Positions 357 through 46,607 of a DNA stretch of 47,315 nt are shown in pieces; within the stretch, counting starts at the first letter, position 1, and every line of letters starts with the position of its first letter. Source of the DNA: an uncultured bacterium (lineage in GTDB: Bacteria; B130-G9); assembly GCA_965372715.1 (NCBI GenBank), contig CBDVDH010000028.1, forward strand, positions 1 through 47,315, written 5' to 3'. The notes below the pieces were generated by a model. That model had not been told where the DNA came from. It searched no databases and saw nothing but the letters and a program-made list of their open reading frames with translations. Position numbers and translations under genes: made by a program.

Positions 357-1124
357 TTGAGTCTGCTATCAACCGCAAAAACGAGCGTTGTTGTTTCGCT
401 GTTTTCGCAGATGGACTCCATCGGGGTCGGGATTACGGTTTCCCTGTTGGCCGTTTCAGTCTATTCGTGGTCAGTAATCCTCGAGCGAGTGTTTTTCTTC
501 AGGGAGATGGCAAGGGGATTCTGGGAGTTTGAGCGGATATTCAGAAAATCGCAGAACCTTGAGGAGGTTGCCGCCGGCCTGAAAGACATCCCGCCCAGCC
601 CGCTGTCGAGGATATTCACCAGGGGCTACGCAGTTCTGGAGGAAGGCCTCGAGCTCTTGGCCGTCGGCAACTCGAGAACGGCCAGCGAGTCGGGGCTCAG
701 AACCGGGATGGTTGAGATGCAAATGGACGTTCTGAAGGAAAGCCTCGCAATCAGCGCCGATGAGGAGGCGGCTCTGTTTGAGAGGCGGCTCGGCGTGCTC
801 GGGACCATCGCGGCAGCCGGTCCTTTCGTTGGCCTGCTCGGGACTGTGTGGGGAATCATGGTTGCCTTCCACAGCATGGGCGGCGCAGGAACAGCCGAAT
901 TCCGAGTGGTCGCGGCCGGAATATCGAGCGCACTTCTTACGACGGTAGCTGGGCTTGTAGCCGCGATTCCCGCGCTCGTATCTCACAACTTCTTCGTCCA
1001 CAAGTCACAGCGCCTAAGCGTGAGGATAGACGATTTTAACGACAGGTTTCAGCGGCTGGCCGGCCGTTGGTTTGTCCAGGCGATCTCAGAGACGGCGCCT
1101 GAACAGGAGAGCAAGAAGCGATGA
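357..1124 (+). CDS. tolQ: MotA/TolQ/ExbB proton-channel family protein
   Basis: N-terminal TM (SVYSWSVILER) and C-terminal LGTIAAAGPFVGLLGTVWGIM..GISSALLTTVAGLVAAIPA signature. ExbB cannot be excluded. Confidence 0.85.
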   Translation: MSLLSTAKTSVVVSLFSQMDSIGVGITVSLLAVSVYSWSVILERVFFFREMARGFWEFERIFRKSQNLEEVAAGLKDIPPSPLSRIFTRGYAVLEEGLELLAVGNSRTASESGLRTGMVEMQMDVLKESLAISADEEAALFERRLGVLGTIAAAGPFVGLLGTVWGIMVAFHSMGGAGTAEFRVVAAGISSALLTTVAGLVAAIPALVSHNFFVHKSQRLSVRIDDFNDRFQRLAGRWFVQAISETAPEQESKKR

Positions 1125-1540
1125 GGCTTGCTAGCCGAAGAAGGACCGCCGTATCAGACATAAACGTAACGCCAATTGTTGATGTCATGTTGATGCTCCT
1201 GGTGATCTTCATCCTCACCGCACCCGTGATTAGATACGGATTGGATATCGGCTTGCCCAAAGGGACCTTCGGGGAGCAAAGCACTCGTCAGGCCGTCATC
1301 GTCTCACTGAGGCAGAATGGTCAAGTGTTTGTGCAGAACAAGAGCGTCAACCGAACGGAGCTGCCAAGGGTCCTGACGGAGAAGCTGCTAGAGATGCCTG
1401 CCTCAAAGGTGATGATTGCCGCCGACAAGGGCATTTCATACGGGGGCGTAATGGAGCTTTTGAGCCTGGTGCAAAGCGCTGGAGTTGATGACGTCTATCT
1501 CTTGACCGAATCGCCCGAGAAGCAGGCTAAACCGCGATGA
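1121..1540 (+). CDS. tolR: TolR/ExbD biopolymer transport protein
   Basis: INVTPIVDVMLMLLVIFILTAP TM with the conserved Asp, plus IAADKGISYG motif. ATGA overlap with the upstream gene. Confidence 0.85.
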   Translation: MRLASRRRTAVSDINVTPIVDVMLMLLVIFILTAPVIRYGLDIGLPKGTFGEQSTRQAVIVSLRQNGQVFVQNKSVNRTELPRVLTEKLLEMPASKVMIAADKGISYGGVMELLSLVQSAGVDDVYLLTESPEKQAKPR

Positions 1541-1690
1541 ATCCCCTTTCGTACCGGGACCGTTTCGGAATCAGATGTGCCCGTGTGCCATCTTCGAGTC
1601 GATGGTGATCTGGGCCAGCGCGAAGGGCGTTGCAACGCTGCGCGAGCGACATGACCACACCCGGCCCGACAACCGATGCCTACCGCGTCG

Positions 1691-1719
1691 TTGACAGCGT
1701 TCGTCTTGCGCTTTAGTAT
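1691..1719 (+). promoter_or_regulatory. Sigma70 promoter of rpmH operon
   Basis: TTGACA-17 nt-TAGTAT about 100 bp upstream of rpmH. Confidence 0.55.
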
Positions 1720-1815
1720 TCGCGCGGTTAGGTTTTTTAACTCCTCTTTGCAGGGATTCCCTTTTACTGACAATGTCGCGTTGAGAGTTTAGAGAGCATT
1801 TGAGAAGGCAGCAGA

Positions 1816-1950
1816 GTGAAGCGAACATATCAACCTCACAACATAAGACGCAAACGGACGCACGGCTTTTTGGTCAGGATGCGAACCAGAAGTGGCAAGC
1901 AGGTCATCGCGAGAAGGCGCTCCATAGCCCGAAAGCGCCTCTCGGTGTAG
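1816..1950 (+). CDS. rpmH: 50S ribosomal protein L34 (not in ORF track)
   Basis: GTG start; translates to [44 protein letters not shown] (44 aa). Canonical position before rnpA. Confidence 0.97.
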
Positions 1951-1990
1951 GGACCACGATGAGCCCTAGAATATCAGGGCTGTAGCCAAA

Positions 1991-2611
1991 TTGCCGACGC
2001 ACGGCGTTGACTATGAGCGGCTAAGGCTTAATTCAGAGTTTCAGCGGCTCTATGAAGGTGGTGGGCGCGTCGCCGGCGCGAACCTGGTCGTAATCGGTAT
2101 AAATGACCGCGGCGAGACGGTCCCTCGGTTCGGCGTGTCCGTCAGCCGAAAAGTGGGGAACGCAGTTGTCAGAAACCGCACAAAGCGCCTTTTGCGGGAA
2201 GCATTCGTGAGTCTGGCGCCGGATGTCGGGCCGGGCTGGGATATTGCCATCTGCGCGCGGCCATCGATTGCCGGCGCCTCGTTCATTGGGGTTCAGGAAG
2301 ACCTGAGGCGCGTTCTAAGAAGGCTTTGCCGAGTCGGCGGCAAGCAAGGGTCGGTTCGCAGTCGGGCAGCTAGGGTGGTCAGCAAGACGGTGTCAGGGCC
2401 GATTATCTTTGCGCTCGTCGCCTACAAGAAGCTGGTCTCGCCGGTCATGCCCCGGTGTTGCCGCTTTGAGCCAACCTGCGCAGACTACGCTGCTGCGGCC
2501 TATCGGAGGTTCGGGTTTTTTCGGGCGACGGGGCTCACCCTTTTGAGGCTTCTGAGATGCCAGCCTCTCTGTGAGGGCGGTTACGACCCAGTGCCCGAAG
2601 CTAAGCATTGA
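1991..2611 (+). CDS. rnpA: Fused RNase P protein component (RnpA) and membrane protein insertion efficiency factor (YidD)
   Basis: N-half has RFGVSVSRKVGNAVVRNRTKRLLREAF (RNR motif). C-half has YKKLVSP..CRFEPTCADY..RCQPLCEGGYDPVP (YidD). No stop codon between them. Confidence 0.92.
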   Translation: MPTHGVDYERLRLNSEFQRLYEGGGRVAGANLVVIGINDRGETVPRFGVSVSRKVGNAVVRNRTKRLLREAFVSLAPDVGPGWDIAICARPSIAGASFIGVQEDLRRVLRRLCRVGGKQGSVRSRAARVVSKTVSGPIIFALVAYKKLVSPVMPRCCRFEPTCADYAAAAYRRFGFFRATGLTLLRLLRCQPLCEGGYDPVPEAKH

Positions 2612-32892: not shown

Positions 32893-35800
32893 CTACAGCG
32901 CGTATTCCTTTGCGTGGTGCTCGCAGAGCCACAGAAAATGCCCCTCGGGCGTCAGCACCTTCTTCAGGCCCCCCCAGTGCCGCTTCGGGTCCTTCTCGTC
33001 CAAGAATCGATACAAGGCGCGCAGCGCGGCGCCTGTCACCCGGTGCGGATCGCCTGTCTCTTCTGCGAAATCCTCGAGGCCGTATTCAGTCGCTTCCTCC
33101 AGGTCTGGTAGCATCTTAACGAACTCGGTCATTAGCTTGATGTCGGTTTTCATCAAGGCCGCGCTCTCAGGTGTCGCGTAAGCCAAGGAAGCGCCGGCGA
33201 CCGGCGCGGCGTATTTCAGCAATCGAACCATCTTGCGGATGTATGGCCCTGTCACCTTGAGCCAGCCAGCGGGATCATCGATCTTGTAGCGACCACCCTC
33301 CGCGATGGTATGCCACTCGCCCGGCGCCTCGCAATAGAGCTGAAGATCCAACATCCTGCTCTTGATCGCTTTCGTCAAACCGGAGGCCTCCCGTGGTCGG
33401 AGCACAAAGACGCTCGGGCAGACCGCCTCGATCTTTGACTGCTCGAGCCGGAAGTTCTTTGTGAACTCACGCTGGGCGAGCTCCCGCAACTCCTGGATTT
33501 GGTCCTTTATCTCGTCATGGCCAGCAACAACTGTGTCCTCGAGGGAATCGATTCGCTCCAGGACAGCATCTTGCGTGCTCCAGTGCACGCCGAACATCAG
33601 GCCGGGCACCGAGACCATCTCGAGCGAGACAGGGCATTGAATCGCCGCACCCGGTGGGTTTCTCTCGATAGCACGCTCGAGGGTCTCAAGGTCGAACTCG
33701 TGGTCGCAAGGCTCGTGATCGTGGCCCGGGCAGGGCATCGTCCTCTCGATCTCAAGCCCCGGAAAGCGGGCCAGCGTGAGTTCGAGGCCGTCCTTCAGAA
33801 GCACGAAGAAATTATGCGGACAAGGGCCCCGGACTGTGAGCTGAATCTCCCGTTCGTGCGTCAGCGCTCGAACCAGAGCGAGATGCCTGCGCTCCTCTCC
33901 GTCCGCGAAAAGGGCGCCGGTGCGCCAGTGCTTGTGCGTCGTGAAGCGGTGCGAACGCGCGATGAACCAGGTCGGGATTCCGGGGGGGATCGTGTTGAGC
34001 CTGAACCGCATCGAGATCTCGCGACATGGTTCCGTATCCTTGATCGCATCCCACTCTTGCGAGTAGTCAGGCGGATCGAGGGGAAGCCGCTCAACGACAA
34101 GACTTATCTCGCGGTTCTCCAGGGTACGGTAGGAGAGGTCAAATCGCTCCATCAGGCGCAGGAAGTGGTTCTGCATGTCGTGCGAAAGGTCCGCCCAGAG
34201 CTCGCGCATGTGTGTCCGAGTGAATATGCCGAGGCGGCCGATAACGTCCTTGCTCTCCAGAACCTCGCTGATGTATTCGGTCATCCATTGTGGCTTTAGG
34301 ATGACCTCGTCGTTGATCTCATCGTCGTCCTGGTAGTAGAGTATCTCGCCGAGTTCGTGCAGCCAGACGGCGAGTATCTTTGCGTCGTCACCAGAGACGC
34401 CTTTCTCACTCATGATGCCGAAGATCTTGCGCGGAGAGAGGTGTTTCTGCTCCCTCGCTCGGATGGCTTCGGCGGCGTCTAGCCACGTTCCAGGCCAGGT
34501 CTCTCCCTGGGTGGTAGTCCGACCGCGGCTTTGATGAGTGCCGCCCGCAGCTCCTCGACGCCCTCTCCGCTCTTGTTGCTGATCTCATAATGGCCTATGA
34601 TCTGAGGGTATTGGGCGCGCAGCCCCGAGAGTGGCAGATCGGCGTCGCGCTCATCAACGTGAGTGGCGACGATCAGAACCGGCGAGTCCGGGGCCCGGGC
34701 TTGGATGGCATCCAGCCAGTAGTAGAGCTTCCCCTGCTCGCAGCCATGTCTTGCGTTCCAGACGAGAACGAAGAGGGAGCGGTTGGTGAGAAAGAACTGG
34801 TGGGTCGCGTGATAGATCTCTTGCCCCCCGAAATCCCAGCCGTTGAGCTCCATCGTCACGTCGGCCTCGGCCGGATGGTCGAGTTCAAGCTGCGATATCT
34901 GGATACCGTGTGTGGTCGCCAACTTTGGATCGAACTTTTCCCCCAACAGCGTCTGGAGCGTTGCGGTTTTGCCCACACCCCCTTCTCCGACGACCAACAG
35001 CTTGGATACCCATTGCCTGCGTCCCCGCTCCAGCTGTGCCCTCAGATAGGCGAGCACCGCCTGCGTTCCCTGCTCAACGATTTCAGGTGGCGGTGAGACA
35101 AGCGGATTGCCTTCGAGACCCAACTCCTGCAGGCTCGTCAGCTTGCCGATCTCTGGCGGCAGCGATGTGAGCTGGTTGCCGACAAGCCACAACATCTCCA
35201 GGCTCGTCAGTTTGCCGATCTCCGGCGGCAGCGTTGTGAGCCGGTTGCCCCAAAGGTACAACTCGCGCAGACTGGTCAGTTCGGTGATCTCCGGCGGCAG
35301 CTTGGTTAGCTGATTCCCTGTGAGGTCCAAAGTCCGTAGGCTGGTGAGTCTTGCGAACTCTGGCGGCAGGGCTGTGAGCCGGTTTTCACGAAGGCTCAAG
35401 CTCCGCAGGCTCGTTAGTGCGCCGATCTCCGGCGGCAGAGTCGTGAACTGGTGGTTCGAAAGATCCAGCTGCTGGAGGCTGGCGAGTTTGGTGATCTCCG
35501 GCGATAGCGTTGTGAGCTTGTTGAGACCCAAGAGCAGCTTCTGGAGGCTGGTCAGTTTGCCGATCTCCGGCGGCAGCTCAGTGAGCTGATTTCCCCAGAG
35601 GTCTAACTCCCGCAGGCTAGTGAGTTTGCCGATCTCCGGCGGCAGAGCGGTGAGCTGATTGCTCCGAAGGGACAATGTGTCCAGGCTAGTCAATTTGCCG
35701 ATCTCCGGCGGCAGCGTTGTGAGCTTGTTGTAACCGGGGACCAGTGTGTGCAGGCTAGTGAGTTTTACGATCTCCGGCGGCAGCGCGGTGAGCCCGTTGT

Positions 35801-36080
35801 TCCTAACATCCAACAACTGGAGGCTCGTCAGTTTGACGAATTCCGGCGGCAGCGCCGTGAGCTGGTTCTCCGAAAGGTACAACTCCTTCACGCTCGTGAG
35901 TTGGCCGAATTCCGGCGGCAGCGCCGTGAGCTGGTTCCGCGAAAGGTCCAACGCCTGCAGGCTCGTCAGTTGGCCGATCTCCGGCGGTAGTTCGGCAATG
36001 CCCTTGAGCGAGAGATCCAGCTTAGCCGTCCCCCTCTCAGCAGCTTCGTCGATGATCCTGAGCAGCTCTTTCCGGTCCAT
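32893..36080 (-). pseudogene. LRR-Roc-COR (Roco) GTPase split by a 1-nt frameshift near 34508
   Basis: ORF 34479-36080 has ~13 LRRs and Roc motifs (GEGGVGKT, WDFGGQ, THVD). ORF 32893-34413 encodes COR. The COR frame stays open upstream to 34506 (GETWPGTWLDAAEAI..). Confidence 0.85.
35100..36020 (-). repeat. 69-bp coding tandem repeats (23-aa leucine-rich repeats)
   Basis: Recurring CCGATCTCCGGCGGCAG at 69-bp period, encoding LPPEIGKLTSLxxLxLxxNxLT. Confidence 0.92.
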
Positions 36081-38687: not shown

Positions 38688-39530
38688 CTAGATAAAAGAG
38701 CGGACCAGCGAGCCGACGATAAGATACCAGCCGTCAACCATCACGAAGAGTAGTATCTTGAATGGCAGCGAGATCATGATGGGGGGCAGCATCATCATTC
38801 CCATTGAAAGCAGAACGGATGCGACGACCATGTCGATGATGAGGAAGGGCACGAAGAGGAGAAACCCTATCTGAAAGGCCGTCTTCAGCTCACTCAGCAC
38901 GAATGCTGGCACAAGGACTTTGTTCGGGACATCTTGGGGCCTTGCGGGCCGCTCCTCCTTCGCAAGATGCACGAACAGGGCGACATCCTTTTCTCGCGTC
39001 TGCCTTAGCATGAACTCCCGAATCGGCGCCATGCCGGACTTGAACGCCTCCTCGTAGTTTATTTCGTTGTTCATCAGCGGCAGGAAAGCGTCGGAATAGA
39101 CCTGATTGATGACCGGGCTCATGACGAAGTAGGTCAGAAAAAGGGCCAGTCCCAGCAGGATCTGGTTGGGTGGCGTCGATTGCGTCCCAATAGCCTGGCG
39201 CAGGAAATGGAAGACGATGATTATCCTGGTGAAGCAGGTTAGGAGCACAAGTATCGCCGGCGCAAGGGTCAGGACCGTCAGAAGGAGCATGAGCTTGAGC
39301 GTGAGGGCGACGCTGTCCGGCGAGTCGGTCTCTCCCAGCGTCAGGGTTACGGAAGGAGCAGGCGGCGCGGGAGCTGCGGGACGCGCTGGTTCCGGCGCTG
39401 CTGGCGGAGCAACCGGTAGCGTCTGGGCAAGAGCGCTGCCGCCGTCGCCCACTAGACCAAGGAAGCAAAGGACGATCAAAAATCCCAAGATGATACTTGA
39501 AGTCTTCGGCGCCCGCGCTGACCTATTCAT
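38688..39530 (-). CDS. fliP: Flagellar export gate protein FliP
   Basis: Signal peptide, LLTVLTLAPAIL..TCFTRIIIV..PPNQIL, SELKTAFQIGF, GMMMLPP..PFKILLFVMVDGW. Confidence 0.96.
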   Translation of the reverse strand: MNRSARAPKTSSIILGFLIVLCFLGLVGDGGSALAQTLPVAPPAAPEPARPAAPAPPAPSVTLTLGETDSPDSVALTLKLMLLLTVLTLAPAILVLLTCFTRIIIVFHFLRQAIGTQSTPPNQILLGLALFLTYFVMSPVINQVYSDAFLPLMNNEINYEEAFKSGMAPIREFMLRQTREKDVALFVHLAKEERPARPQDVPNKVLVPAFVLSELKTAFQIGFLLFVPFLIIDMVVASVLLSMGMMMLPPIMISLPFKILLFVMVDGWYLIVGSLVRSFI

Positions 39531-40771: not shown

Positions 40772-41641
40772 CTAGTTGAGGACTACAGAGAGATTCTTTT
40801 CCTTTGCGAATCGGCGTATTCTCTGCTTCGCAACGGACTCGATCTGCCGGACACGTTCTCGGCTCAAACCCATTTCTTGCCCCACGCTCTCCAGGCTTCT
40901 TTTGAGACCGCCCTTCAGGCCGAACCTAAGCGTTATCACCGTTTGCTCCTGTTTATTCAGCTGCTCGATGAGCTCGCGAAGGCGCTCCATGTAGCTTTGC
41001 AGTATAGCCGCCTGCTCGATCTCGCTCTCGCCGTAGGTCTCTGCGTCGTCGAGATTCGCCTCTAGAATATCGGTGCCGCGGTCCTTTGAAGACTCGATCG
41101 AGATGGCGTCGGTCGATGCTCTCAGAAGGATCTCAACCTCGGCCTCGGAGAGGCCAACGTGCTCCGCGACTTCGCCCGGCTTCGGCGCTCGGTTCAGCTC
41201 GTTGCGCAGGTATTCGTATGCGTTCTTGATCGCCTGAAGCCGAAGCCGCTGTTTGGCTGGCAGCCTCACGATGCCGGCCTGGGCTGCCAGGGCCGACCTG
41301 ATGGATTGCTGAATCCACCACTTGGCATAGGTAATGAACCGATTGGCTTTGTCGGGATCGAATCTCTTGGCCGCCTCGATCAAGCCTATATTGCCCTCGT
41401 TGATCAGGTCGAGCAAGGGTACTCCGCTGTTTGAGTATTTCTTGGCTATCGAGACAACGAAGCGCAGGTTGGACCTGACGAGTCCCTCGACCGCCTCCTT
41501 ATCGCCGTTCTTGGCACGCCGGCCTAGCTCGATCTCCTGCTCCCTAGTCAAAAGAGGAGTCCTGGAGATCTCCCTCAAGTAGGTTCTGAGAATATCCTCA
41601 GAAGCTGCCTCGCTACCGTTGGATTTGCTTCTATCGCTCAT
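40772..41641 (-). CDS. Sigma-70 family (RpoD/RpoS-like, no region 1.1) RNA polymerase sigma factor
   Basis: YLREI, NLRFVVSIAKKY, DLINEGNIGL, TYAKWWI, region-4 HTH LSRERVRQIE. Confidence 0.93.
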   Translation of the reverse strand: MSDRSKSNGSEAASEDILRTYLREISRTPLLTREQEIELGRRAKNGDKEAVEGLVRSNLRFVVSIAKKYSNSGVPLLDLINEGNIGLIEAAKRFDPDKANRFITYAKWWIQQSIRSALAAQAGIVRLPAKQRLRLQAIKNAYEYLRNELNRAPKPGEVAEHVGLSEAEVEILLRASTDAISIESSKDRGTDILEANLDDAETYGESEIEQAAILQSYMERLRELIEQLNKQEQTVITLRFGLKGGLKRSLESVGQEMGLSRERVRQIESVAKQRIRRFAKEKNLSVVLN

Positions 41642-41850
41642 TGGTTCGTGCTTCGCTCCTCACCATCCGCAGCCGAAACGCCCAGCCACACATCGGTAGT
41701 GCAGTCGCTCTTCATACAGAAGATTACCGCAGAGCTGAAACCGATGCAAACGCCTGACCTCGCCATCGATCTGCGCGGAGGACGGAGCCCCGCGCCGATT
41801 CCCTGTGCTCCACCACATTGTATGGCAAGACGGACAGCTAGGTCCGCCGC

Positions 41851-42270
41851 CTATTCTCCCATGATCTGAACGATCACTCTGCGGTTGCGGGGACTGTTGT
41901 CGAAATCGAGAAGCACAATCTGTTGCCATGTGCCGAGCACGAGCTTTCCAGAATGAAGCGGCACAGATAACGAGCTGCCGATCATGGCCGCCCTAACGTG
42001 TGAAAAGCCGTTGCCGTCGCCCCACCTCAGATCATGTTGGTAGCGGATGTCCGAAGGGGCCATGCGCGCTATCGCGTCTTTCAGGTCTTGCACCACACCT
42101 GACTCGTATTCGATTGTCGATATCGCAGCCGTCGAACCAGCCACACAAACGGTTACCAGCCCATTCTTGATATCGGACTGTGATACCGCTTTAATAACGC
42201 GGTCTGTGATATCGATAGTGTCCGTAAACCCCCTCGTCGGGACCTGGAACTCTCTCAAGGCAACAGGCAT
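41851..42270 (-). CDS. yjbQ: UPF0047/YjbQ protein (secondary thiamine-phosphate synthase)
   Basis: GSTAAI..EYE, HD..WGDGNGFSH, LGTWQQIVLLDFD. Confidence 0.9.
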   Translation of the reverse strand: MPVALREFQVPTRGFTDTIDITDRVIKAVSQSDIKNGLVTVCVAGSTAAISTIEYESGVVQDLKDAIARMAPSDIRYQHDLRWGDGNGFSHVRAAMIGSSLSVPLHSGKLVLGTWQQIVLLDFDNSPRNRRVIVQIMGE

Positions 42271-42383
42271 CTCGCCTCGCTGTATCTCTTATACTTTGGC
42301 AAATGCGAGGGAAGAGCACTGCTCAATCCCTCGTATCTAAACAACTGAGCGACTCCTTCGGTTGCCGGTAACACGGCAAGGGT

Positions 42384-42410
42384 TAAGAAAATCACAGTCA
42401 GTTACGATAT
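42384..42410 (+). promoter_or_regulatory. Putative sigma28 (FliA) promoter for motA operon
   Basis: TAAG-N15-TACGATAT versus consensus TAAA-N15-GCCGATAA, 80 bp upstream of motA. Confidence 0.45.
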
Positions 42411-42490
42411 GTATTGGCGCAAATAGTAGTGCGTCTTTTCGTGTCTGAAAAGCTTATAAGGACTCTGAAGGCAGGTTAAGCTAAAGCGCT

Positions 42491-43249
42491 ATGGACATAG
42501 CGACAATCGTCGGCTTATTGGTTGGGGGCGGCCTTGTCCTGTTTGGGATGGGTGGCTCAGTCAGCGCATTCATCGACGTCGCCTCGTTTATGATCGTGGC
42601 TGGCGGCACGATCGGAGCTGCGCTCATCAGTTTCCCACTCAAGGACATGACGGGGCTGGCTGGCGTGATTCAGCATGCTGTTTTCGTCCGCGTAAAGGCC
42701 CCCAACGATCTGGTTATGCAGCTGGTTTCGTTTTCGCAAAAGGCCAGAAGGGACGGGATGCTTTCGCTGGAGGGTGTTGCAAAGGAAATCGACGATGAAT
42801 ACCTGAAGAAGGGGATTGGCCTCGCCGTTGACGGCACTCAGGCTGAGCTTGTGAAAGAGATACTCGAGACCGAGATGGACTATGTATCCGACCGGCACAA
42901 GGTTGGCGCGTCAATACTGGAAGCCATGGGAGGGTATTCCCCCGCGTTCGGCATGGTTGGAACCTTGATCGGGCTCATCTTGATGTTGCAGTCCATGGAC
43001 GATCCAAGCACGATTGGCCCCGCGATGGCGATTGCGTTGATAACGACCTTCTATGGCGCTTTGTTTGCGAACCTGATATTTATACCTCTCGGCGCGAAGC
43101 TAAAGAAAAGATCACAGGAGGAAAGGCTCCGCAAGGAGATGATAGTATCCGGCATTATGTCGATTCAGAGCGGGGACAATCCCAGGCTGGTTGAGCAGAA
43201 ACTCAACACTTTTTTGGCGCCCAAGGAGCGCGGGTCTTCCTTCGAGTAG
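42491..43249 (+). CDS. motA: Flagellar stator A subunit (MotA/PomA)
   Basis: MDIATIVG, IVAGGT, ARRDGMLSLE (conserved R/E), PAFGMVGTLIGL, ALITTFYG. Confidence 0.95.
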   Translation: MDIATIVGLLVGGGLVLFGMGGSVSAFIDVASFMIVAGGTIGAALISFPLKDMTGLAGVIQHAVFVRVKAPNDLVMQLVSFSQKARRDGMLSLEGVAKEIDDEYLKKGIGLAVDGTQAELVKEILETEMDYVSDRHKVGASILEAMGGYSPAFGMVGTLIGLILMLQSMDDPSTIGPAMAIALITTFYGALFANLIFIPLGAKLKKRSQEERLRKEMIVSGIMSIQSGDNPRLVEQKLNTFLAPKERGSSFE

Positions 43250-43388
43250 GCACGATGAATACAAAGAGCTCCGAGCGCTCTCTGCTGACCGTTATGGCAG
43301 ACTTCGCCATAGTAGCCTATGAGGCTACGTCGGCTGAACCGGCAACGGTCGAATTACCCAGACGTTCTCCCTCCAGGTAGGAAGCAAG

Positions 43389-44132
43389 ATGGCCGAAGAA
43401 GAGTCAAAAGAGCTCCCAGGGTGGGTTCCGCTTTTCACCTGTTTGATGATCCTTTTGTGCGCCTTCTTCATCATGCTCGTGGCGTATTCGTCGTTTGATG
43501 ACAAGAAAACCAAAGTTGCGATCGGTTCCTTGAGAGGCACATTCGGCGTCTCCGGTGGTCTTGGACTGTTCCCAACTGACGAAAGCTCATCGCCGCTTCA
43601 GGACCCCGGCAATACGTCAGAGCCCCACGGGACTGAGTCGATGGTACAGAAGCTCCGCGCCTTCGGGAGGTTCTGCGAAGCACACAAAGGAATTCGTGTC
43701 CGATATGACTCAAAAGGCATGAGGATAGATGCAGCAGAGAGAGTCCTATTCGATCTTGGCTCTGCAAAGATCAGAACCGATAGTGAAGAGTTTTTGGGCA
43801 CGGTTGCTGATCTTGTCGTGGAGGCCCAGAGCCACGCGCTGGTCGAGGGGCACTGCGACAAGGCCGACGTCGAGGCCTCTGATTACGCTTCAGGATGGGA
43901 GCTGTCCGTTGAAAGGACAATTGCGGTTACGAGATTCTTCGTGAGTTCTGGGGTCGAGCCCGGCAGGCTGGCGAGCTATGGCTACGGTGAGTTCAATCCG
44001 CTCTCCTGGGGGGAGAATAAGAAGGACGGATTCAATCGAAGGGTTACAATCCTAATAGACATCGGAGATGTAGAGAACCTGTTGAGTGAGTTTGAGGAAA
44101 CGGATGGCGAGGAAGAAGAAGCAAACAGCTAA
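43389..44132 (+). CDS. motB: MotB-family stator subunit lacking the conserved TM Asp
   Basis: TM WVPLFTCLMILLCAFFIML and OmpA-like domain VEGHCD..WELSVER..GYGE..NRRV. Confidence 0.85.
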   Translation: MAEEESKELPGWVPLFTCLMILLCAFFIMLVAYSSFDDKKTKVAIGSLRGTFGVSGGLGLFPTDESSSPLQDPGNTSEPHGTESMVQKLRAFGRFCEAHKGIRVRYDSKGMRIDAAERVLFDLGSAKIRTDSEEFLGTVADLVVEAQSHALVEGHCDKADVEASDYASGWELSVERTIAVTRFFVSSGVEPGRLASYGYGEFNPLSWGENKKDGFNRRVTILIDIGDVENLLSEFEETDGEEEEANS

Positions 44133-44877
44133 GGGCGGCGCAGACCAGAGCTGGATGTTGACATTCTCGGACATGATGACGTTGCTTCTAACGTTCTTCG
44201 TGCTCCTGTTTTCGATGTCTTCCACCGACAGTGAAAAGCTGAATCGGGCGATTCAGGCGCTTCAGAACCAGTTTGCAGTTCTCGAGCTGGGCGCTTTAGG
44301 TCTGAGCGATTCTCCCATGGCTGGCCGGGAGGACCCCGGGCTGAGGATAAGGCCGGGCCAGATAGGAGCTGCAATTGACGAGATGAAGCGATTCATCTCG
44401 TCCGAAAACCTTGACGACGGCGTTCAGGTGACGCGAACCGAGCGGGGCCTGAAGGTCTCCATTTCGGCAGACGTTCTCTTCGATTCGGGTTCCGTGGTGG
44501 TAAAGAAAGAACTATACCCTCTTCTTCACAAGGTCTCGCTTCTCGCAACCAGGCTTGCCAAGACGGTTCGTGTCGAGGGCAACACGGATAGTGCGCCTTT
44601 CGTCGGGAGAAACTACGATTCGAACCTTGAACTCTCCGCTTACAGGGCGATTAACGTTCTTCGGGTCATTTTGCAGAAAAGAGCTTTCACCCCTCACGGC
44701 GCATCCATCGGCGCGTTTGGCGAACATAACCCGATCTATCCACAAGAGCAGACCGACGAGGAACGAAGGGCTAACAGACGAGTTGACGTCTTCATAACCG
44801 ATCCACCTGACGCTGAATCTTTTTGGTATGCGCTAATGCAGTCGTATCTTGACAGCGCAAATAGGGCAAATCGATAA
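44104..44877 (+). CDS. motB: Flagellar stator B subunit (MotB/PomB) with canonical Asp
   Basis: Start placed at ATG 44104. TM WMLTFSDMMTLLLTFFVLLFSMS; OmpA-like VEGNTD..NLELS..RA..NRRVD. Confidence 0.92.
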   Translation: MARKKKQTAKGGADQSWMLTFSDMMTLLLTFFVLLFSMSSTDSEKLNRAIQALQNQFAVLELGALGLSDSPMAGREDPGLRIRPGQIGAAIDEMKRFISSENLDDGVQVTRTERGLKVSISADVLFDSGSVVVKKELYPLLHKVSLLATRLAKTVRVEGNTDSAPFVGRNYDSNLELSAYRAINVLRVILQKRAFTPHGASIGAFGEHNPIYPQEQTDEERRANRRVDVFITDPPDAESFWYALMQSYLDSANRANR

Positions 44878-44952
44878 GTTCATTTGCGTCTTGATAAACT
44901 CTTTGCTATCTTAGACTTGTAATTCATCAAACGCTTGTGGAGATGGCTTATC

Positions 44953-45495
44953 GTGGCAGATGACACGACTGGCGCGGGAGACCCAGGCGGCCAGCAGAAA
45001 GCGGGCCCCGTCAAGAAGAAAATCTCCCTCGTCAAGATACTAATTCTCTTGATCATTGCGCTCGTGGTGCTTGGCGGCGCTGCCGTGGGGGTTCTGTATT
45101 TCCTCTATGGTTTGGAGTCGACTGACAGCGGCTCAAAGACGCAAGCTGGCGAGCCCAAGCAGAACGATTCCCCCCAAACCCCGGTGGCCTCCGAAGAGGT
45201 CGGCACCTACGAGCTCAAGCCGTTTATTGTCAACCTGGCGGACGGTAGCTCTTATCTAAAGATCACGATAGCGCTGGGCTACGGTGTCCCGGAGCATCAG
45301 AAGCTTCTTGAGGACAAGTCAACACAGATAAGGGACGCGATTCTTACGGTATTGTCCTCCAAGAGCGCCAAGACATTGTCAACCAAACACGGGAAAATGA
45401 AGCTCAAGGAAGACGTTAAGAACGCGTTGAACAAGCTCGCCGGCCTTAGAAATGTTATCACTTCGGTCTATTTCACAGAATTCCAGATCCTATAA
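44953..45495 (+). CDS. fliL: Flagellar basal body-associated protein FliL
   Basis: Single TM, then FIVNLAD..YLKITI..IRDAI..VYFTEF. GTG start after GGAG. Confidence 0.92.
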   Translation: MADDTTGAGDPGGQQKAGPVKKKISLVKILILLIIALVVLGGAAVGVLYFLYGLESTDSGSKTQAGEPKQNDSPQTPVASEEVGTYELKPFIVNLADGSSYLKITIALGYGVPEHQKLLEDKSTQIRDAILTVLSSKSAKTLSTKHGKMKLKEDVKNALNKLAGLRNVITSVYFTEFQIL

Positions 45496-45637
45496 GGGGT
45501 CATCGACTCGAGCCTGGAGCATTTTTGAAGGTTGGCTAGGCGCCCGAAGATGAACGGTTGACCACAAATAATCCGTGTCGATTTCGCGGCATCCCGACAA
45601 TGCTGCAAGACGTTTAGGCTGCAAAAGAGGCAAGATA

Positions 45638-45958
45638 ATGGCCAAGACTCTGCCGCCCTCGGAGACTGGTTTTGTATCGGAACCTCTCGTTGCAAGCTCC
45701 CATAATACCTCAAAATCAACGATTGATTTCTTGTCAGATATCTCGGTAACCCTTTCCGTAGTATTGGGTAGGGCAACCATCTCTATCAGACAGCTGTTGG
45801 AATTGGGCGTTGGCAGCGTGGTAGAAGTTGATAGGCCGGTTGGCGAAAGCCTTGATTTGAACACAAATGGGTCGCCGTTTGGCAAGGTGGAGGTTACGGT
45901 CATTGAGGATACCTACGGTCTGCGAATAGCAGAGATAATCAACCCTTTTGCGGGGTAA
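45638..45958 (+). CDS. fliN: Flagellar motor switch protein FliN (SpoA domain)
   Basis: IDFLSDISVTLSVVLGRATISIRQLLEL..GSVVEVDR..YGLRIAEI. Confidence 0.88.
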   Translation: MAKTLPPSETGFVSEPLVASSHNTSKSTIDFLSDISVTLSVVLGRATISIRQLLELGVGSVVEVDRPVGESLDLNTNGSPFGKVEVTVIEDTYGLRIAEIINPFAG

Positions 45959-46004
45959 CCACCTTCTCATCGACCATGCCGCCTTTTGCAGTGGGGAAAG
46001 ACCG

Positions 46005-46607
46005 ATGCCGGGGATAAGATGCTTTAAGCTAGTCTTTTTTCTCAGTCTCGTCATTTTTGCCTCGGCCACTCCGATTGGTGGTAGGGCCCAGGAGCGGTAC
46101 CTTAACCAAGAGCTGGAGAGCCTCGCTTCCCCCTCCCCTGAGTCCGCTGCATCCGCTGCGCCGGCCGACGAGCCTTCTTTCATGCAGCTCTCGGTGCGGA
46201 TGTTCATCGTTCTCACGGTTGTGGTTGGGCTGATCATCCTCCTTGGGTTTGGCATGAGGAGATTCTTGAAGGGCAAACGGTTTGGGTCTGGCAAGATTGC
46301 CAACGTGCTTTCTGTTACGCACGTTGTGGACAGGAAATACATCGCTGTTGTTGAGGTTCTTGGAAGGACGTTAATCGTTGGCGTCGGCGCCGACTCGGTT
46401 ACCCTCCTGTCCGACATGGGACCCGCGCTTCCCTTAGAACAGGAAGAGGCGGGCTCTTCTGTGCCAGTGAGCCGCGATCGGGACGCGGCAGGTTTCTCCG
46501 ACGTGCTGGCGGACAAGCTCGCTGGGTTGGAATCTGCCCAGGCCTCGTCGTTTCTGGATGATCTGAGTGAGCAGGTAAAGAAGAAAATCTCGCGCCTCAA
46601 GGAATGA
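46005..46607 (+). CDS. fliO: Flagellar biosynthesis protein FliO
   Basis: TM followed by IAVVEVLGRTLIVGVGADSVTLL; located after fliN. Confidence 0.82.
   Translation: MPGIRCFKLVFFLSLVIFASATPIGGRAQERYLNQELESLASPSPESAASAAPADEPSFMQLSVRMFIVLTVVVGLIILLGFGMRRFLKGKRFGSGKIANVLSVTHVVDRKYIAVVEVLGRTLIVGVGADSVTLLSDMGPALPLEQEEAGSSVPVSRDRDAAGFSDVLADKLAGLESAQASSFLDDLSEQVKKKISRLKE

Follow-up and report, generated by a model that had tools for sequence, protein, structure and literature searches.

A flagellar stator operon from an uncultured bacterium was found to encode one MotA and two MotB proteins, the first of which, MotB1, lacks the aspartate (Asp) that binds the coupling ion in MotB. The operon lies on a contig of 47,315 nucleotides (CBDVDH010000028.1 of GenBank assembly GCA_965372715.1; GTDB lineage Bacteria; B130-G9), the whole of which is referred to here as the window. 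Loss of the Asp is conserved, motB1 is under purifying selection, its adjacency to an Asp-bearing motB is obligate across the loci compared, and the MotB architecture is retained. Judged from its sequence, motB1 probably encodes a working MotB paralogue that is kept by selection, is blind to the ion, and is linked to a normal MotB, and MotB1 appears to belong to an old, widespread family of such paralogues, provisionally designated MotB' (or B') below. The most likely arrangement, to which we assign a probability of about 0.5, is a mixed stator, MotA5-MotB-MotB', with a single ion-binding site. We put forward more tentatively, as possible but short of probable, that such a flagellar stator, with a lone ion-binding Asp, occurs naturally, is ancient, and is widespread.

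Loss of the channel Asp in MotB1

The membrane helix of MotB1 reads W-VPLFT-C-LMILL, versus W-MLTFS-D-MMTLL in MotB2. A first-pass annotation made from the DNA letters had described one MotA and two MotBs at this locus, with a TGT codon at 43440 replacing the MotB Asp, and the open reading frames (ORFs) and domains proved to be as described. Codon 18 of motB1 encodes a Cys that shares an alignment column with the Asp found in MotB2 and in canonical MotBs, and a family profile put the Cys18 position at the Asp of 6ysf, the solved MotB from C. sporogenes.

Among 5.8 billion proteins searched, 17 MotB1 orthologues were found, with 54 to 85% identity. All 17 carry Ser at the Asp site. The first-pass annotation had allowed that MotB1 orthologues might retain the Asp, which would have made the change a private mutation or decay; none of them does. 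The question of a private mutation divides in two: the Cys is private to this genome, and the loss of Asp is common to all of the orthologues. Named relatives of the host genome are Candidatus Coatesbacteria metagenome-assembled genomes (MAGs), and motB1 was present with an intact frame in seven of the seven genomes examined for the phylum. The site codon is TCT or TCG (Ser) in the other six, with TCT in the sister genome versus TGT here. Cys18 is thus a one-base change, private to the host genome, on a Ser background. The partner gene motB2 directly follows motB1 in six of the seven genomes (the seventh contig ends 86 bases past motB1), and the Asp is invariant in all 17 aligned partner sequences (FSDMMTLL in MotB2).

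Selection on the operon was assessed from dN/dS, the ratio of nonsynonymous to synonymous substitution rates (Nei-Gojobori method, pairs with unsaturated dS). Values were 0.23 to 0.34 for motB1, 0.15 to 0.23 for motB2, 0.26 to 0.47 for fliL, and 0.035 to 0.063 for motA. The purifying selection on motB1 that the first-pass annotation had proposed to look for is borne out by these values. A private mutation or pseudogene is ruled out by the 17 Ser orthologues, the frame intact in all seven genomes, and a dN/dS well below 1, and decay of motB1 is refuted. The Cys itself is unique to the host genome and lies one base from the Ser codon TCT, as would suit a sequencing or assembly error in the MAG; the absence of Asp from every orthologue, however, makes the result independent of whether Cys or Ser stands at the site. 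We therefore regard a decaying duplicate or such an error as an exceedingly improbable explanation.

Mean pairwise identity in MotB1 was 0.85 for the membrane helix (residues 9 to 34), 0.72 for residues 35 to 55, 0.66 for the OmpA-like domain, and 0.46 for the linker. The helix is the best-conserved part of the protein, which fits a buried helix and not a lipid anchor.

The two MotBs of the phylum also differ outside the helix. MotB1 has an acidic cytoplasmic tail (MAEEESKE, 43389 to 43412), with few changes across 18 of 18 orthologues, and MotB2 has a basic one (MARKKKQ, 44104 to 44130). Asp-less copies of other lineages are mostly basic tailed, so the acidic tail is specific to the phylum. 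The OmpA-like core of MotB2 is altered, with EGNTD for EGHTD and SNLELS for SNWELS in the window and in the orthologues at loci L014 and L016-L019, and MotB2 of the phylum carries a conserved C-terminal extension, PPDAESFWYALM.SYL. The MotB1 core retains His, Asp, and Trp (EGHCD and SGWELS). From these sequences, MotB1 and MotB2 may share out the anchoring and ion roles.

A family of Asp-less MotB paralogues and their partners

An exhaustive HMMER search over 1.84 billion representatives gave one representative cluster at E < 1e-30, below which lay ordinary MotB-like proteins at approximately 30% identity. From 163 aligned rows, seven were dropped (four long proteins without an aligned helix and three fragments), leaving 156 rows, 131 with the Asp and 25 without it. 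FastTree, a fast method applied here with the membrane-helix columns included, placed 20 Asp-less rows in one group (support 91), which in turn belongs to a larger starred set of 24, of which 22 lack the Asp and 2 have it. MotB1 itself fell within the group of 20, in a starred set of six Asp-less rows, together with a Candidatus Schekmanbacteria protein. On this tree the state of the Asp site required five changes, versus a mean of 23.4 when the states were shuffled. In a second retrieval, a profile built from the 20 Asp-less proteins recovered 103 further proteins, with 70 Gly, 15 Ser, 3 Ala, 1 Cys, and 13 Asp at the site and one protein unaligned. Named Asp-less carriers were MAGs of Desulfobacterales, Deltaproteobacteria, Thermodesulfobacteriota, and Schekmanbacteria.

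The Asp-less and Asp-bearing proteins share several helix positions, numbered here from the Asp site: Trp at −6, Phe or Tyr at −2, two Phe residues at +8/+9, and Leu at +12. In Asp-bearing rows, Thr or Ser occupies −3 in 97 to 100% and +3 in 94 to 99%; in Asp-less rows, Leu, Val, or Ile is found at both positions. The −3 and +3 hydroxyls are thus lost along with the Asp, and the whole polar stripe is gone. MotB1 fits the Asp-less pattern (L15, C18, I21, F26, and F27). These columns bear on whether MotB' could still conduct ions through Ser, Cys, Thr, or another residue, with both chains active. The Ser or Cys at the site with Thr at −1 in the phylum would suit such a role, but the 151 Asp-less rows (not de-duplicated) have Gly in 79, Ser in 53, Ala in 13, Cys in 3, Asn in 2, and Thr in 1, and both neighboring hydroxyls are replaced by aliphatic residues. 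The aligned family rows show no conserved acidic residue within the helix. A conducting MotB' is accordingly very improbable. Outside the helix, core residues of the OmpA-like domain are invariant over the Asp-less family (G154, H155, D157, W170, L172, S173, and R176).

In a tree built from the periplasmic columns, B' copies never paired with their own partner B. The Coatesbacteria B' clade and B clade each had a support of 100, and the Gly-type B' clade mirrored the clade of its partner Bs. A recent, lineage-specific duplication is ruled out, since B' and B were never sisters. A single origin of 17 Asp-less rows was not rejected with the periplasmic columns (p-AU of 0.526), and the tree constrained to hold these 17 rows together scored 1.92 log units above the one from the free search.

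The first-pass annotation had also proposed a survey of tandem motB pairs. A metagenome scan from a 7-row alignment yielded 80 loci, in which ORFs were called, MotA, MotB, and FliL were identified by phmmer, and the Asp column was located by hmmalign. Asp-bearing MotB alone was found at 63 loci, the hits at 6 loci had no aligned helix, and 11 loci had an Asp-less copy; because the second pattern of the scan also matches canonical MotBs, 11 of 80 is not an estimate of frequency. The residue at the site was Gly in six of the Asp-less copies, Ser in three, Ala in one, and Asn in one. An Asp-bearing motB was the direct neighbor in 11 of 11 Asp-less loci, and no solitary Asp-less copy was seen. fliL lay behind the B'/B pair in all 11, and motA lay in front in 10, the eleventh being cut by a contig end. 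The order was motA-B'-B-fliL at 10 loci, a layout shared by the host window. The remaining locus has a reversed triad, motA-B(Asp)-B'(Asn)-fliL (L050:1703-3044), and its Asp-less copy may represent an independent origin. In most Asp-less loci, the two genes of the pair share 4 nucleotides (nt) where the stop codon of one runs into the start codon of the next; in the orthologues of motB1 and motB2, the overlap is 26 nt.

No description of an Asp-less MotB paralogue was found in the literature searched, most subscription journals and supplements being outside that search. The available text of one MotB study (PMC7787011) calls the channel Asp universally conserved and retains only Asp-bearing sequences for its phylogeny. 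A filter of this kind in MotB surveys would hide the Asp-less family. Existing labels of MotB' genes are "OmpA family protein" or plain "MotB."

Proposed composition of the stator

To relate MotB1 to known stator proteins, its domains and predicted fold were analyzed. The first-pass annotation had called the OmpA-like domains of both MotBs intact, in agreement with PF00691 matches above the Pfam cutoff in each, and the plug domain PF13677 is also above its cutoff in both (scores are given in Table 1). MotB1 scored below every NCBIfam MotB cutoff (the best model was MotD, NF006541, at 111.7 versus 283 bits), as did MotB2 (142.9 versus 301 bits). An AlphaFold2 model of MotB1 (50 sequences, mean pLDDT of 76.1) has a long helix at residues 12 to 48, a disordered, low-confidence stretch at 44 to 80, and an OmpA-like domain. 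The nearest solved folds by Foldseek were the periplasmic domains of MotS, of H. pylori and Salmonella MotB, and of PomB. Desulfovibrio vulgaris "putative MotB like protein" (PDB 3khn), whose chain comprises the periplasmic part only, was also matched. MotB' thus resembles the canonical B subunits MotB, PomB, and MotS of MotA5B2 stators in both Pfam domains, in helix register, in nearest periplasmic folds, and in its motA operon, with full-length homology to 6ysf, 8ucs, and 6ysl (profile E values of approximately 1e-65 to 1e-55). It differs from them in having Cys, Ser, Gly, or Ala for the Asp, in its loss of the −3/+3 hydroxyls, and in being always accompanied by a second, normal MotB.

When MotB2 and MotB1 were modeled together as two chains, the score was 0.69, versus 0.00 for the best of three controls; 116 of 157 solved complexes attain that mark, as do 2 of 215 mismatched pairs. 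At least 74% of contacts were common to the runs, and the partner pLDDT was at least 65. Contacts were formed between the OmpA-like domains and along the helices of both chains at −1, +2, +6, +9, and +13. The core register of the E. coli MotB dimer is given as A31, M34, M38, F41, and W45 in the accessible portion of a preprint (bioRxiv 10.1101/2023.03.05.530362). The modeled contacts match this register, and Cys18 and the MotB2 Asp would therefore face outward, toward MotA. MotB homodimers have already been solved, so the passing score may merely reflect likeness to them.

The host genome (3.56 Mb in 112 contigs, the window being contig C28) was searched for other stator genes. The PF13677 MotB_plug domain matched motB1 and motB2 only. 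Six MotA_ExbB matches were found, of which the motA of the operon is the only flagellar-type MotA; three of the other five have an ExbD or TonB gene as neighbor, and for two no partner was seen in the stretch examined. A separate flagellar MotA dedicated to MotB1 was considered, and none was found, the other five MotA_ExbB matches not being flagellar MotA. The genome also encodes three flagellin-type genes and one FliG.

The mixed stator is envisaged as follows: (i) one operon would supply MotB' along with MotA and an ordinary MotB; (ii) MotB' keeps the MotB helix register, the plug-like segment, and the OmpA-like cell wall domain; (iii) it has lost the channel Asp and the two hydroxyls one helical turn to either side; and (iv) it would fill one of the two central positions in the MotA pentamer. 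Ions per MotA turn might then be halved, or one chain might serve as passive axle and anchor only. Both the assembly of MotB' with MotB2 and MotA and any such consequence for function are what we infer. The constant adjacency, the conserved helix register, and the passing heterodimer model all fit a B/B' pair within MotA. The heterodimeric B/B' stator proposed by the first-pass annotation gains to this extent, although these results do not separate the mixed unit from a B' homodimer or an anchor.

One alternative is that MotB' homodimers occupy MotA pentamers of their own (MotA5-MotB'2), non-conducting but still binding cell wall and rotor; among active MotA5-MotB2 units, they would act as a brake, placeholder, or load-bearing spacer. 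The kept helix register and OmpA-like domain suit any MotA-bound form, and a single MotA is available in the host genome. However, it is easier to see why a subunit would be encoded in the same operon, often with overlapping codons, and retained across phyla than why a constitutive inhibitor would be, and the 11 Asp-less copies need an Asp-bearing motB as neighbor in every case, not merely a motA. Neither objection is decisive, and we consider this arrangement unlikely.

A different alternative places MotB' outside MotA, as an accessory of the stator ring that is anchored in the membrane, binds peptidoglycan, and resembles MotY or the T ring, or as a partner of FliL in positioning or stabilizing stators. 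The invariant OmpA-like core and the fliL that always follows the B'/B pair would accord with this role, and extra periplasmic scaffolds occur in many motors, according to the portion of PMC7990780 available. Against it, the membrane helix is the best-conserved part, with a MotB-specific pattern that includes the FF at +8/+9; in a simple anchor, the helix could drift freely, and Pfam still detects MotB_plug. An accessory anchor is slightly less likely still. MotY and OmpA-like stator scaffolds share with MotB' an OmpA-like domain tied to stator function. To our knowledge, MotY lacks a membrane helix and a plug of the MotB type, both of which are found in MotB'.

Several points count against the mixed stator. 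The backbone of the periplasm-only tree is not resolved, and the clade of 20 Asp-less rows comes from the FastTree analysis in which helix columns were included. The dimer model does not tell a heterodimer from a homodimer, and operon adjacency is also compatible with a dummy unit or with an anchor of the accessory kind. In E. coli, MotB mutated at Asp32 is reported to be dominant-negative; if so, mixed units fail in that species.

Other systems likewise combine one A-type gene with two B-type genes. In Aquifex aeolicus, motA is followed by motB1 and motB2 in one operon, and the two MotBs share 97% identity over their N-terminal and membrane regions, with one difference (Gly/Ser20), whereas the periplasmic parts differ strongly (PMC4525482, available portion). 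In the host pair, by contrast, the ion-site face of the helix differs and MotB1 has no Asp. AglR-AglQ-AglS of Myxococcus gliding and ExbB-ExbD1-ExbD2 also comprise one MotA/TolQ-like gene and two different B-type genes. Partial texts predict an AglQ-AglS heterodimer inside AglR5 (PMC11761067) and place a mid-membrane Asp in both AglQ and AglS (PMC9389320). These B-type proteins are of the TolR/ExbD type and not of the MotB type. The host genome itself has an ExbB gene followed by two tandem ExbD genes beside a TonB-dependent receptor fragment (locus L004, G000:C36:29619-32981, positions 607 to 2367, minus strand); the membrane Asp is kept in both ExbD copies, unlike in the MotB pair.

The operon, its neighbors, and implications

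The plus-strand gene order, from ORF calls and Pfam, is motA, motB1, motB2, fliL, fliN, and fliO (Table 1). The 29-nt overlap of motB1 and motB2 reported in the first-pass annotation is correct, given a motB2 start at ATG 44104 (MARKKK...), which is the start common to the orthologues. An upstream GTG at 44086 would give a protein of 263 amino acids (aa) and an overlap of 47 nt. We infer that the overlapping reading frames fit coupled translation. A promoter and terminator scan of 41600 to 45100 returned no promoter-like sites, and nothing telling was seen by that scan in the 139-nt gap between motA and motB1.

The Na+-type likeness suggested earlier was not upheld. MotA scored best with the NCBIfam MotP and PomA models, at 265 bits each, and both scores are under the cutoff. 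MotB2, whose FVLL was taken earlier as an Na+-type hint, has Val at Asp +10, the residue ten after the MotB Asp, where Val is linked to H+ in the available part of PMC7787011. The coupling ion cannot be told from the sequence.

Table 1. Features of the stator operon and of the ROCO-type genes in the window
Feature	Position	Strand	Remarks
ROCO part with COR-A + COR-B	32893-34413	-	
ROCO part with LRR + Roc GTPase	34479-36080	-	
motA	42491-43249	+	252 aa; PF01618, 107 bits
motB1 (MotB')	43389-44132	+	247 aa; PF13677, 32.2 bits (cutoff 24); PF00691, 49 bits (cutoff 27.2)
Cys18 codon TGT of motB1	43440-43442	+	position aligned to the ion-binding Asp
motB2, Asp-bearing	44104-44877	+	257 aa; PF13677, 73.8 bits; PF00691, 37.3 bits
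Overlap of motB1 end and motB2 start, 29 nt	44104-44132	+	from ORF coordinates
fliL	44935-45495	+	PF03748, 77.9 bits
fliN	45575-45958	+	PF01052
fliO	45948-46607	+	PF04347

Just upstream of the stator operon, the minus strand encodes a sigma-70 family factor of 289 aa that has regions 1.2, 2, 3, and 4 (40772 to 41641) and may be a flagellar sigma factor. fliP (PF00813, 283.8 bits) is found on the opposite strand, 6 kb upstream (38688 to 39530, minus), and no fliP is present downstream of fliO (46607), unlike the usual fliO-fliP order. Elsewhere on the minus strand of the window, a ROCO-type protein is split across two ORFs (32893 to 36080), and an IS200-like Y1 transposase (PF01797; 21219 to 21746) lies between genes for a RecD2-like helicase and a phosphate acetyltransferase.

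In current stator models, the two MotB aspartates alternate as MotA rotates around them. If the mixed stator with MotB' is true, two alternating Asp residues would not be obligatory, and a 5:2 rotary motor could run on a single ion site, perhaps as a "gear" of lower cost and lower torque that would suit anaerobes living on little energy. A conserved, operon-linked, Asp-less MotB offers a natural experiment on whether both ion sites are needed and on the role of each chain. The finding also corrects the annotation of genes now labeled as OmpA family proteins or as MotB.

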